From contig JBCBZW010000007.1 in the NCBI GenBank assembly GCA_039815145.1, positions 1,192-65,191 on the forward strand: a stretch of DNA of 64,000 bases. Direction: 5' to 3'. The first letter of the stretch is position 1. The number at the start of each line of letters is the position of its first letter. Positions 22,793 through 26,979 of this stretch are shown piece by piece. The notes below the pieces were generated by a model. The model worked only from the letters and a program-made list of their open reading frames with translations, ran no database searches and had not been told where the DNA came from. Position numbers and translations under genes: made by a program. The stretch comes from Pseudomonadota bacterium. GTDB taxonomy: Bacteria > Pseudomonadota > Gammaproteobacteria > Steroidobacterales > JBCBZW01.

Positions 22793-24859
22793 TCAGGCTC
22801 CAACCGCGGCAACCATGCGCAGACGCTTGTCGTCCGGCACTTCGTTCACCGCCAGTACGTTCAGATTCGGTAGCTGGTGTCGCAACAGGCGCGATAGCCA
22901 ACTCCTGATCGTCGGGCTCACCAACACCACTGCCGGTTCGCCTGCCATCTCCTGGCGTTGGGCGGACTCGGCGAGGCTACGGTGCAGTCGCTCGGCGAGG
23001 TTCGGCTCGATGCCGCCGCCTTGTCCGCTCTGCAGGTTCTCTTGCAACATGCGTTCCAGTTTTGGCTCCAGCGTGATGACAGGCAGTTCTTCCCGCATTC
23101 CATTGATGCGTTGGACGATGGAACGCCCCATGGCGACCCGCACCATGGCCGCCAGAGCGGCGGGTTCTTGACTGCGCGGCGCGTGTTCCGCCATCGCTTC
23201 GGCGATTCTCTTGAAGTTGGTGATGGGGATGCGCTCGGCGAGTAACTCCTGCAGCGTGCGCACGAAGGCGCCCATGGACAGGGCCTTGGGCACCAGGTCC
23301 TCCACCAGCTTCGGTGAGCTTTGCGCCAGGCGGTCGAGGAGGTGTTGGGCCTCGTCGTAGCCGAAGAGCTCGTTGGCGTGCGTCGTCAAGATCTGTGTGA
23401 GGTGGGTGGCGACCACGGTGGCGGCATCGACCACGGAGTAGCCGAGGGTCTGGGCGCGTTCGCGCTCCGAGGGATCGATCCACACCGCGTCCAAGCCGAA
23501 GGCGGGCTCCTTGGTCTTTTGTCCGGGAATCGGCTTGACCGTGTCGTTCGGTGCGATGGCGAGTTCTTTGTTGGGGAAGATCTCGCCCTCACCGATCGGC
23601 ACGTCCAGGAGCTTGATCCGGTAAGCGTTGGGGTTGAGCTCGAGGTTGTCGCGGATGTGCACGGGCTGCACCAGGAAGCCCAGCTCCTGGGTGAACTTCT
23701 TGCGTACGCCCTTGATCTTGTTCATGAGCTCGCCGCCCTGGCGCTTGTCCACCATGCCGATCAGGCGGAAGCCCACCTCCAGACCCAGGGCATCGACATC
23801 GGACACATCGTCCCAGGACAGCTCCGGCGGTTTCGGCGCTTCCGTGGGAGCTTCCTGCTCGGCTGCGGCCGCTTGCTCCGCCGCGGTCGGCTGCCGATTG
23901 AGCAGCCATGCGCCGGTGCCACAGGCGGCGGCTAAACCTAAGAACACCACGTTTGGCATGCCGGGGATGAGCCCCAGCAGGCCGAGCACCCCAGCGGTGA
24001 CGCCGAGCGTGCGGGAGTTACCGAGCAGCTGCTTCACCACCTGCTCGCCCATGTCCTGGGAGCCGGACATGCGGGTGACGATGATGGCGACGGCGGTCGA
24101 GAGCAGCAACGAGGGGATCTGGGCCACCAGACCGTCGCCGATCGTGAGCAGTGTGTAGTACTCGAGCGCCTGGCCGAAGGGCATGCCGTGCTGGAGGGGG
24201 CCGATGGCGATGCCGCCGATGATGTTGATGAAGAGGATCAGGATGCCCGCGGTCGCATCGCCACGAACGAATTTGCTAGCACCGTCCATGGAGCCGTAGA
24301 AGTCTGCCTCCTGGCGAATTTCCTCGCGCCGCTGACGTGCTTCGTCCTGGGTGACCAGACCTGCGTTCAAGTCGGCGTCGATGGCCATCTGGCGACCGGG
24401 CATGGCGTCCAAGGTGAAGCGTGCGCTCACCTCCGAGATGCGCCCGGCGCCCTTGGTCACCACGATGAAGTTGATGATCACCAGGATGGCGAAGACCACC
24501 AGGCCCACGGCGAAGTTGCCGCCCACCACGAAGTCCCCGAAGGCCTCGATCACCCGGCCGGCGGCGCCCGTGCCATTGTGGCCGTTGAGCAGTACCACGC
24601 GGGTCGAGGCCACGTTGAGCGCGAGGCGCAGCAAGGTGGCGATCAACAGCACGGTCGGGAACACCCCGAGGTCCAGGGGGCGGTTGGCGTAGATCACCGC
24701 GAGGACGATCACCAGGGACAAGGTGATGTTGAAGGTGAACAGCAGATCCAGCGCCATGGGCGGCAGGGGCAGCACCATCATGCTGAGCATCAAGATCAGC
24801 AGAATCGGCACACCCGCGCCCTGGCGTAGCTGGCGGGCGACACGCTCGAGGAGTTCCAT
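22793..24859 (-). CDS. flhA: Flagellar export apparatus protein FlhA
   Basis: 688 aa, FHIPEP family. Eight TM segments followed by a cytoplasmic domain. 'GDGLVAQIPSLLLSTA' is typical. Confidence 0.95.
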   Translation of the reverse strand: MELLERVARQLRQGAGVPILLILMLSMMVLPLPPMALDLLFTFNITLSLVIVLAVIYANRPLDLGVFPTVLLIATLLRLALNVASTRVVLLNGHNGTGAAGRVIEAFGDFVVGGNFAVGLVVFAILVIINFIVVTKGAGRISEVSARFTLDAMPGRQMAIDADLNAGLVTQDEARQRREEIRQEADFYGSMDGASKFVRGDATAGILILFINIIGGIAIGPLQHGMPFGQALEYYTLLTIGDGLVAQIPSLLLSTAVAIIVTRMSGSQDMGEQVVKQLLGNSRTLGVTAGVLGLLGLIPGMPNVVFLGLAAACGTGAWLLNRQPTAAEQAAAAEQEAPTEAPKPPELSWDDVSDVDALGLEVGFRLIGMVDKRQGGELMNKIKGVRKKFTQELGFLVQPVHIRDNLELNPNAYRIKLLDVPIGEGEIFPNKELAIAPNDTVKPIPGQKTKEPAFGLDAVWIDPSERERAQTLGYSVVDAATVVATHLTQILTTHANELFGYDEAQHLLDRLAQSSPKLVEDLVPKALSMGAFVRTLQELLAERIPITNFKRIAEAMAEHAPRSQEPAALAAMVRVAMGRSIVQRINGMREELPVITLEPKLERMLQENLQSGQGGGIEPNLAERLHRSLAESAQRQEMAGEPAVVLVSPTIRSWLSRLLRHQLPNLNVLAVNEVPDDKRLRMVAAVGA

Positions 24860-26010
24860 CAGTCCTCATCCTCTCTAGGTGGGTCACCGGCGGTGACATC
24901 AGGTGGCAGCTCGATATCGGGTACGTCGGGCATGGGGATCTCGTAACGTCGCGCTCGGCGCAGGGCGTAGATGTAGGACAGCACCTGGGCGACGGCTTGG
25001 TAGAGGGCGCGCGGGATCTCCTCGCCGATGTCCGTGTGACGGTTGAGCGCCCGCGCCAGGGGTGGCGCTTCGAACAGCGGGACCCGATGTTCCTCGGCAA
25101 TCTCGCGAATGCGCGCGGCCACCATGTCCGTGCCCTTGGCAACCACCTTCGGTGCGCCCATGTCGTCTTCGTAGCGCAGGGCGACGGCGACGTGGGTCGG
25201 GTTGGTCACCACCACGTCCGCATGGGGCACCTCCTCCATCATCCGCCCGCGTGCCAGCTGCTGCTGCAACTGGCGAATTCGCGACTTCACTTCGGGGCGT
25301 CCGTCTGTCTCCTTCGCCTCATCGCGCACTTCCTTGAGGGTCATCTTCAGCTTGCGAGTGAAGTCCCAGAGCTGAAACGGCACGTCGATCGCGGCGATCA
25401 GGGCGAGGCTCGCGCTCAGCAGGAGTAGCGACAGGAGGCACAGCCGGATGGCGTTGCCAAGGGCCGTATTCACCGGTTGCATACTGAGGCCAACAATTTG
25501 GGGGGCGAGCTGATTCAGCAGCAGCACGGCGACACCGCCGACCAGCAGGAACTTCGCCATCGCTTTCATCAGCTCTACGAAGTTCTTCGGCGCGAAGAGA
25601 CGCTTGAAGCCCTTGATCGGGTCGAGCTTCTCGAGCTTGGGCTCGAGGGCCTTCAGGGTAAAGTTCCAGCCCCCTAGCATGATCGGGCCCACAAAGGCGG
25701 CGAAGGTGCAGAGCAGAAGAAACGGCGTGAGCGCCAGCAACCCTCGGATGATGTTGCCTTGAAGCGAGCGCATCAGATAGGTAGGGTCACCGAGCTGTGC
25801 CGCGCGGGGTGAGAATTGCTCGCGGAAGATGTCGAGGATGGTGTCCTGCAGGCCACCCCCAAAGAGCATCAAGCCCACCGCGCCCGCCATGGTGACGAGC
25901 ATGGTGGAGAGTTCCCGTGAGCGGGGGACGTTACCCTTCTCCCGTGCCTCGCGTAGGCGTTTCGGGGTTGGGTCTTCGGTTTTCTCCTGACCGTCTTCGT
26001 TCTCAGCCAT
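24859..26010 (-). CDS. flhB: Flagellar export switch protein FlhB
   Basis: 383 aa. 'EKTEDPTPKRLREAREKG' N-terminus and the autocleavage motif 'NPTH' (VVVTNPTHVAVAL). 1-nt overlap (TGATG) with flhA. Confidence 0.95.
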   Translation of the reverse strand: MAENEDGQEKTEDPTPKRLREAREKGNVPRSRELSTMLVTMAGAVGLMLFGGGLQDTILDIFREQFSPRAAQLGDPTYLMRSLQGNIIRGLLALTPFLLLCTFAAFVGPIMLGGWNFTLKALEPKLEKLDPIKGFKRLFAPKNFVELMKAMAKFLLVGGVAVLLLNQLAPQIVGLSMQPVNTALGNAIRLCLLSLLLLSASLALIAAIDVPFQLWDFTRKLKMTLKEVRDEAKETDGRPEVKSRIRQLQQQLARGRMMEEVPHADVVVTNPTHVAVALRYEDDMGAPKVVAKGTDMVAARIREIAEEHRVPLFEAPPLARALNRHTDIGEEIPRALYQAVAQVLSYIYALRRARRYEIPMPDVPDIELPPDVTAGDPPREDED

Positions 26011-26017
26011 GGTTGGT

Positions 26018-26199
26018 TAGCCTGGATTGTTCATGAGTCTTCGTCGCGAGGGCGACGAGACGCGGGAAAACACGGTGTGGCGCGCAGTGGAAGGCGCGCA
26101 GGCGTACTCGACAGTACGTTGAGCACCTGGAATGAGCACGCACCGTGTTTTCCCGTGTATCGGCGGCCGCAGCAGATGACTCATGAATAATCCAGGCTA
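26018..26199 (-). repeat. 182-bp multi-hairpin inverted-repeat element (MITE/REP-like, or a structured RNA) between fliR and flhB
   Basis: Terminal inverted repeats 26018-26039 / 26178-26199 (21/22 nt complementary). Inner perfect 15-bp pair 26063-26077 / 26141-26155. Additional local hairpins are present. Confidence 0.6.
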
Positions 26200-26979
26200 G
26201 GGTCGCAGGATCTCGGCGAGCAGCTGGAAGGACACCTCCAGCAGGTGTATCAGTGCGCCCTGCGTGGACGGCAGGCTGACCAGGATGATGGCGAAGCCCA
26301 TGACCAGGCTGATGGGGAAACCGATCGCAAACATGTTGAGCGACGGTGCCGCGCGCGAGATCACGCCGAAGGCGATGTTGACGATGAGCAGGGCGCTCAC
26401 GGCGGGCAGGGCGATCTGCAGGGCGCCGCCGAACATGGTGCTGGCGAAGGAGATCAACTCCCAGAGCAGATCCTGACCTGATTGCAGATTCTCGGGCACC
26501 ACCACGGGCATCGACTGAAAGCTCTGGGCGAGCACTTCCAGCAACATCAGGTGGCCGTTGATGGCGAGGTAGGTGAGCGTCGCCAGGATGAGGTAGAACT
26601 GGCTCAACACCGGCACGGATACGCCCCGTTCCGGATCCAGAAAGGTGGCGAAGCCGAGTCCCATGGACATGGCGGCGGTCTCGCCGGCCACCACCATGGC
26701 ATCGAACACCAGCTGCACCACGAAGCCGAGCAGCATGCCGATGAGCAGCTGCTGCCCCGTGAGCAGGAACCCCGCGGGGCTCATCAGCGGCACGTCGGGC
26801 ATCGGCGGTAGGGCGGGCCCGATCAGTGCGGTCAAGCTCACCACCAGCAGCAGCTTCACCCGCTGCGGAATGTTGCGACTGTTGAACAGCGGGGCGACGG
26901 CCACCAGCCCACCGATGCGCACGAACGGCCAGAAGTAGGCGTTCACCAACGCGAGCAGGAGGTCTTCGCTGAAGAACAT
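26197..26979 (-). CDS. fliR: Flagellar export apparatus protein FliR
   Basis: 260-aa polytopic protein beginning 'FWPFVRIGGLVAVAPLF', in the conserved fliPQR order. Confidence 0.92.
   Translation of the reverse strand: MFFSEDLLLALVNAYFWPFVRIGGLVAVAPLFNSRNIPQRVKLLLVVSLTALIGPALPPMPDVPLMSPAGFLLTGQQLLIGMLLGFVVQLVFDAMVVAGETAAMSMGLGFATFLDPERGVSVPVLSQFYLILATLTYLAINGHLMLLEVLAQSFQSMPVVVPENLQSGQDLLWELISFASTMFGGALQIALPAVSALLIVNIAFGVISRAAPSLNMFAIGFPISLVMGFAIILVSLPSTQGALIHLLEVSFQLLAEILRP

Follow-up and report, generated by a model that had tools for sequence, protein, structure and literature searches.

The flagellar export genes studied here raise the question of why one junction of a tightly packed operon is occupied by a long, strongly self-complementary sequence, and whether this sequence has any role in the expression of the gene that follows it. 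The window, meaning the whole stretch of 64,000 nucleotides that was analysed, contains fliR, flhB and flhA (Table 1), as well as fliQ and fliP, which lie upstream of fliR on the same minus strand and likewise exceed their NCBIfam equivalog cut-offs. The window FlhB corresponds to MEO0421394.1, and its N-terminus (MAENEDGQEKT) is conserved in relatives. The spacer between fliR and flhB is 186 nt long, whereas the other junctions between fliM and flhA lie between an overlap of 4 nt and a gap of 12 nt, in keeping with the tight packing remarked upon in an earlier note made from the sequence alone. Read along the operon strand, the junction is ...CGA CCC TAG, then CCTGGATTATTCATGAGTC ... GACTCATGAACAATCCAGG, then CTAA CCAACC ATG, which places the flhB AUG approximately 6-7 nt 3' of the flhB-side flanking repeat. 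The sole ORF running across the insert is a mechanical, out-of-frame one that overlaps fliR and fliQ.

The earlier note described a 182-bp multi-hairpin element wedged exactly between the fliR stop and the flhB start. Its structural part stands. The terminal arms (26018-26039 and 26178-26199) differ at one of 22 positions, the inner 15-mer pair (26063-26077 and 26141-26155) is perfect, the small local hairpins are found in the sequence, the gene boundaries place the fliR stop (26197-26199) within the right arm, and the flhB ATG lies 7 nt beyond the end of the left arm. A 22-nt arm pair with one difference was never reproduced by shuffles of the window. After extension, the terminal arms reach 25 nt with 92% complementarity and the inner pair 28 nt with 86%. 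The extent of the element had to be revised, as the arms were drawn 3 nt too long on each side: the outer TAG/CTA belong to 4-bp flanking repeats (26017-26020 and 26197-26200), and the mobile unit is 176 bp long (26021-26196). Its termini are given as CCTGGATTRTTCATGAGTC, and its two 19-nt TIRs agree at 18 of 19 positions. The flanking repeats of this copy are imperfect (CTAG versus CTAA, identical at three of four positions). The unit has no coding capacity and no transposase gene, and no comparable second element was found in the 64-kb window, where it is present as a single copy.

Table 1. Coordinates of the genes and of the features of the putative MITE at the fliR-flhB junction (positions in the window)
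Feature	Position	Strand	Remarks
fliR	26197-26979	-	260 aa, upstream gene; NCBIfam equivalog cut-off passed
fliR stop codon TAG	26197-26199	-	Read on the + strand as CTA
flhB	24859-26010	-	383 aa, downstream gene; NCBIfam equivalog cut-off passed
flhA	22793-24859	-	NCBIfam equivalog cut-off passed; overlaps flhB
Putative MITE body, TIR to TIR	26021-26196 (176 bp)	-	TIR register common to family members and full-length ISs, and alignment gap against the sister MAG
fliR-side TIR, CCTGGATTATTCATGAGTC on the operon strand	26178-26196	-	Identical to the family consensus
flhB-side TIR, CCTGGATTGTTCATGAGTC read inward on the + strand	26021-26039	+	Plasmid IS comparison and sequence
4-bp flanking repeat CTAG, fliR side	26197-26200	-	Its TAG is the fliR stop; CCCTAG also at the empty site of the sister MAG
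4-bp flanking repeat CTAA (TTAG on the + strand), flhB side	26017-26020	-	Three of four positions as in the other copy
Upper hairpin	26063-26155	-	Perfect 15-bp inner pair (26063-26077 / 26141-26155) around a non-palindromic tip with small GC-rich hairpins
Ends expected to bound the cognate IS1380-family element			CCTGGATTATTCATGAG

The long-range stem suspected in the earlier note is borne out by folding of the minus-strand RNA (26220-25990), which gave one long hairpin with an MFE of -107.4 kcal/mol, compared with -70.5 +/- 4.5 kcal/mol for 200 shuffles (z = -8.1). The predicted stem is continuous over 11 + 10 bp at its base and exceeds 60 bp overall, and it brings the stop codon and the AUG within 7 nt and one helix end of each other. 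A search of Rfam with the window region and 20 related loci returned nothing above the gathering score. The best match, MIR918 (36.8 bits against a gathering score of 268), was discarded as a generic match to long hairpins.

Since this genome is a MAG, the hairpin might have been a chimera produced by the assembler, an explanation to which we give hardly any credence. The independent Logan assembly of SRR22824269 reproduces both junctions exactly, flank and 41 nt of the element included. Its contigs stop approximately 41 nt inside each arm, so that the central ~97 nt of the element lie beyond them and come from one assembly only, which is what speaks for an artefact. Against it, besides the two exact junctions, the hairpin is imperfect and its tip non-palindromic, unlike fold-back chimeras, and its termini are genuine transposon ends accompanied by target repeats, as set out below. 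There are no self-complementary 31-mers in the element, yet the Logan contigs break there; these breaks could result from branching on other copies with the same subterminal 30-mers, or from a drop of coverage over the hairpin. In that assembly, positions 1154-1193 of L012 correspond to 26157-26196 of the window, and positions 1-40 of L001 to 26021-26059.

The comparison of fliR-flhB junctions in related genomes, proposed in the earlier note, proved informative, as the hairpin is missing from all of them. The closest relative found was the sister MAG GCA_039193195.1, the FlhB of which shares a 90%-identity cluster with the window FlhB and the operon of which is 84-86% identical at the nucleotide level. 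Its junction reads CCCTAG followed by CGGTCACCCGTC-ATG, which is a 12-nt gap with the CTAG target present, and in a pairwise alignment 184 nt of the window junction face 10 nt of the sister MAG. An independent Logan contig of the sister relative (L050) has a 12-nt junction identical to that of the sister MAG contig (L049). In three relatives at a greater distance (73-76% FlhB identity), fliR and flhB are 12, 12 and 21 nt apart (L013-L016). As the sister MAG and these three relatives all have short gaps, the hairpin was gained in the lineage of the window, and, judged from the sequences compared, the insertion is young and lineage-specific. Compared with the sister MAG, the spacer from the element to the flhB AUG is shorter by 6 nt, and the downstream repeat departs from the upstream one at a single position, so that the precise form of the ancestral junction is a reconstruction that we infer.

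The sister MAG carries a terminus of the same type at a second locus, where CTAG is followed directly by CCTGGATTATTCATGAGCC, 120 nt from the end of a contig. Together with the breaks of the Logan contigs, this second terminus suggests repeated DNA. In L049 (20102-20224; JBCCWS010000013.1, ~125,800-125,922), an ATG (MDDVTTAQ...) is found ~85 nt past CTAG and CCTGGATTATTCATGAGCC, after which the contig ends. The full-length autonomous IS of the lineage may begin here, with this terminus and the ATG. No plasmid match was obtained by BLAST with the L049 tail.

In order to follow the termini beyond this lineage, we scanned genome and metagenome collections with the 20-mer GCCTGGATTNTTCATGAGTC, and matches were obtained at 30 loci, in Aminicenantes, Acidobacteriota, Chloroflexota, Cyanobacteria, Eubacteriales and unclassified contigs. 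TA lies directly 5' of the match (YTAG-CCTGG, the hyphen marking the boundary) in 17 of the 30, where approximately 2 would be expected by chance; this excess, the partner arms located 90-260 nt away in many cases, and the perfect repeats argue that the loci are not chance matches. The elements so defined are short (90-260 bp) and occur in metagenome, genome and viral contigs of many phyla. Seven complete elements have perfect flanking repeats, CTAG/CTAG in L011, L028, L033, L035 and L039, and TTAG/TTAG in L019 and L020. As TTAG is non-palindromic, these repeats are true 4-bp duplications located outside the TIR. The viral contigs contributed one genuine element, of 185 bp (L039); their three other matches were all one unrelated sequence and were set aside. 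Of the 20 matches for which the locus is a whole contig, seven lie at most 300 nt from a contig end, compared with 3.9 expected, a further indirect hint of repetitiveness.

The ORFs flanking the metagenome copies are unrelated genes of the hosts, encoding glutamine synthetase-like, TolC-like, thioredoxin-reductase-like, ankyrin and BNR proteins, and no transposase was found among them. No similarity could be detected between the interior of the window element (26060-26156) and the other elements, the common part being the termini. Differing interiors with common termini are usual for groups of MITEs served by related transposases.

Full-length ISs with these ends were found on plasmids. BLAST of the element against plasmids identified 16 Streptomyces plasmids matching the flhB-side arm, and in every case examined an annotated IS1380-family transposase lies approximately 150-175 nt upstream of the match. 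The transposase of this IS was assigned to Pfam DDE_Tnp_1_4 (PF13701) at 2e-87. An alignment of four full copies showed that the left end of this IS is YTAR followed by CCTCGNGCTTTCAYGAG and its right end GACTCATGAACGATCGAGG followed by YTAR, the flanking repeats being CTAA/CTAA, CTAG/CTAG, CTAA/CTAA and TTAG/TTAG. The flhB-side arm (TIR plus the next 7 nt) matches the right end of the Streptomyces IS at 23 of 26 positions, above the 15/26 by which the two ends of that IS match each other. A 1623-bp IS with an annotated IS1380-family transposase and CTAG/CTAG repeats is present on the Lichenicola cladoniae plasmid NZ_CP053709.1, bounded by CTAG then CCTGGATAATTCATGAGCC and by CCCTGACGAATTATCCGGG then CTAG; its end is identical to the window terminus at 17 of 19 positions. 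All five full-length copies thus have CC ends and 4-bp YTAR repeats. CC ends are also present in the window copy, the repeats of which agree at three of four positions. In the window itself, no IS1380-family transposase was detected (best tblastn E = 2.4).

An IS1182-family transposase near one of the matches was considered as a parent and rejected, as it belongs to an insertion nested in the tail of the IS1380 element. This nested element, with ends GACCCTGTTGGCGAATCC...GGATTCGCCAACAGGGTC, was seen on the Streptomyces sp. NBC_00271 plasmid NZ_CP108071.1 (L042 ~700-2470, L044 250-2030). Its site is the 3' untranslated tail of an IS1380-family element, and an IS110-family gene adjoins it, forming an IS pile-up.

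IS1380-family elements duplicate 4-5 bp of their target (ISfinder). For IS1247, a member of this family, inverted repeats of 16 and 13 bp and a 5-bp direct repeat have been described (PMC3281130), and the DDE_Tnp_1_4 transposases of the family are prokaryotic relatives that serve as an outgroup to piggyBac (PMC10813416). The window element resembles these ISs in its CC-starting termini, homologous over 19-26 nt (17/19 to 23/26), and in its 4-bp flanking repeats of the YTAR form, which here agree at three of four positions. [quoted passage not shown]

Our initial reading of the termini was another one, namely an IS630/Tc1-mariner-type MITE with a TA duplication at CTAG and the termini GCCTGG...CCAGGC. 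IS630 elements target CTAG and duplicate TA, and the window copy alone fits TA-GCCTGG...CCAGGC-TA perfectly, CTAG being palindromic and this register therefore formally possible for that copy. It was rejected on account of the other copies, since the non-palindromic repeats TTAG/TTAG (L019, L020, L048) and CTAA/CTAA (L045, L047) can be read as 4-bp duplications only, and since the same termini end ISs encoding an IS1380-family transposase (DDE_Tnp_1_4). Moreover, no IS630-type transposase was seen to adjoin any copy. We consider the TA-duplicating alternative very unlikely.

We therefore conclude, with high confidence, that the hairpin element is a non-autonomous IS1380-type MITE inserted in the CTAG that overlaps the fliR stop. 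The earlier suggestion of a MITE/REP-like insertion thereby holds in its first half, for which the shared termini, the 4-bp duplications of elements elsewhere, the IS1380 ends and the empty site all speak, and fails in its second. REP/BIME sequences do resemble the window element in being intergenic, palindromic and co-transcribed. REPs, which are mobilised by RAYT (tyrosine-type, IS200/IS605-like) transposases, are units of approximately 35 nt without TIRs or target duplications. The window element, unlike them, is bounded by 19-bp TIRs and 4-bp flanking repeats, and its ends are of the IS1380 type. The predicted RNA hairpin is the inverted-repeat architecture of the transposon itself.

The proposed history of the junction is short. 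An IS1380-type transposase acting in trans would have inserted the element at a CTAG made of the last C of fliR codon 260 and the TAG stop. The 4-bp target would have been duplicated, so that the upstream copy restored the fliR stop and the other, which is CTAA today, came to lie ahead of the flhB AUG. Since the target duplication rebuilds the stop, fliR and flhB would have remained intact and the insertion could survive in a tightly packed, essential operon. The exact wedging of the element between stop and start is thereby explained without invoking a function, because the CTAG target overlaps the fliR stop, which is restored by the duplication. In this DNA of 67% G+C, YTAR sites are rare, with 109 in 64 kb where base composition predicts ~440, which leaves stop codons among the few tolerated targets. 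Counted separately over the whole window, the four forms are ~3-8-fold rarer than expected (observed/expected: CTAG 44/196, CTAA 25/89, TTAG 34/107, TTAA 6/49).

We then considered what the insertion would mean for the expression of flhB, beginning with transcription. A very stable hairpin within an operon could be an intrinsic terminator or attenuator, or the element could act as a mobile promoter for flhB, and its interior does contain, at 26152-26159 on the minus strand, GCCGATAC, which matches the sigma-28 -10 box GCCGATAA at 7 of 8 positions. There is, however, no acceptable -35 box at 11-12 nt spacing to GCCGATAC, the sigma-28 candidate having 6 mismatches overall, and no sigma-70-like or sigma-54 promoter was matched in the element. 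Nor was a terminator-like site detected within 26011-26200, where the stem is followed by CUAACCAACCAUG without a U-tract; flhB and flhA overlap, and the operon requires read-through. A transcriptional role of either kind is highly improbable. As neither terminator nor promoter was found, the element is presumably co-transcribed in the fliLMNOPQR-flhBA mRNA.

Co-transcription would place a hairpin of approximately 180 nt in the operon mRNA, with the weak SD-like AGG of flhB buried in it as a side effect. The sole AGG of this kind lies in the 3' arm, within the flhB-side TIR, 11-13 nt upstream of the flhB AUG, as the earlier note had pointed out when it stated that the left arm covers the only SD-like stretch, and it is 90% paired. 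The AUG itself lies in an A/C-rich stretch that is approximately half open in the predicted fold. Partition-function folding of a 421-nt transcript gave, for flhB positions -20 to -8, a mean unpaired probability of 0.10 with the element in place, of 0.52 when a ribosome footprint was set on the fliR UAG, and of 0.37 for the modelled empty site. Translation of flhB would then probably proceed by ribosomes arriving from fliR and melting the lower stem, or by SD-independent initiation at the unstructured A/C-rich region around the AUG. The long double-stranded stem may also be a substrate of RNase III, by analogy with Correia elements.

These values bear on the second proposal of the earlier note, according to which the stem strictly couples the translation of flhB to that of fliR. 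In its domesticated form, the hairpin, whatever its origin, would now be retained for hiding the flhB RBS until a ribosome ending at the fliR UAG opens the lower stem. The opening of the SD zone from 0.10 to 0.52 agrees with this proposal, as does the close juxtaposition of stop and AUG by the predicted stem; furthermore, the 12-nt gaps and weak SDs of the relatives indicate that coupling was probably the ancestral mode. Folding is thus consistent with the claim, and signs of selection, conservation or compensatory change were looked for and none found. The element is missing from three further relatives and also from the sister MAG, the operon of which is 84-86% identical in nucleotides; the pairing is that of the transposon's TIR, which is also found in unrelated contexts; and the lone difference between the arms (A versus G at TIR position 9) leaves an uncompensated A.C mismatch. 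Any hairpin MITE inserted at a stop codon would produce the same arrangement automatically. A domesticated coupling switch, which would set the FliR:FlhB ratio or make FlhB synthesis conditional, is therefore unlikely.

In a more elaborate version, the MITE hairpin would have been co-opted as a structural coupler, holding the fliR stop beside the flhB start and masking the flhB RBS, so that FlhB would be made only by ribosomes finishing FliR or after RNase III processing. This is very unlikely, and if it were true it would represent a translational coupling device built by a transposon in a flagellar export operon, acting on FlhB, the export-gate switch protein. A regulatory role of the hairpin is possible but unsupported, and we retain the young MITE insertion as the explanation of this junction.

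Other short hairpin elements offer points of comparison. [quoted passage not shown] 2008) as an element approximately 180-235 bp long and located within an operon, with predicted RNA hairpins of approximately -98 to -130 kcal/mol (PMC3184786). As far as the summaries go, it resembles the window element as a MITE that left the operon in which it lies undestroyed, the hairpin energy here being -107 kcal/mol, and it differs by other, 21-bp TIRs, by 9-bp direct repeats, by its A+T-rich sequence and by belonging to another transposon family. In Neisseria, co-transcribed hairpins of Correia elements are cut by RNase III, and in Yersinia, RNA hairpins of ERIC elements alter mRNA decay (PMC10969869, PMC2649163). 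Both are short, TIR-bearing and co-transcribed, as is predicted for the window element, and may be the best functional analogy for a 180-nt hairpin in an operon mRNA, although their sequences and transposase family are other ones. Correia elements in addition carry promoter and IHF sites, and such sites were not found in the window element.

The striking structure between fliR and flhB is thus best read as a mobile-element insertion, its placement arising from the choice of a YTAR target, here a stop codon, and from survivorship. In the comparison, MITEs that combine IS1380-type ends with 4-bp YTAR duplications emerge as a group spread across many phyla; a limited literature search turned up no published description of such a group. 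The junction is also a natural case of two essential, translationally coupled genes of flagellar export that put up with 174 additional nucleotides of strong structure between the stop of one and the start of the other. In a motile organism, the locus would be a convenient natural test of how far a hairpin can replace physical adjacency in translational coupling.

Several further observations were made on loci with the same termini. A subgroup of the TIR family in Aminicenantes, Acidobacteriota and others (L006 3186-3433 on the minus strand, L009, L020 2172-2360 and L025 2959-3138; in part also L003, L005, L007/L024, L022 and L030) has a conserved interior, GAGTCGAGnnGCTGCAGATGCGAGGC ... GAAGCTGTACT..AGTACTGCGA ... 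ACGAAGCAG..GATTGGCTCACCC, that folds as a long hairpin. Compensatory changes are seen in 11 of 33 pairs of this hairpin among four sequences, and it matched no Rfam family. In L006, L007 and L009 the element ends 9-20 nt ahead of a start codon, always in the same orientation, and the subgroup element may be a mobile 5' leader.

At L031 (640-730), two tandem units of approximately 40 nt consist of a TIR pair without interior (GCCTGGATTATTCATGAGTCGATTTTATGAATATTTCAGGC, followed by a diverged second unit), and represent the family in a minimal, solo-hairpin form. The terminus was also matched in intergenic DNA on plasmids of Latilactobacillus and Lactiplantibacillus (L051 2500-2524, ATAG followed by CCTGGATTAATTATGAGTC) and of Rhizobium sullae (L053 2502-2524, CTAG followed by CCCGGCTTATTCATGAGGG). 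No annotated transposase was found near either match, and both probably represent the same family in Bacillota and Alphaproteobacteria, as further MITEs or as solo ends.
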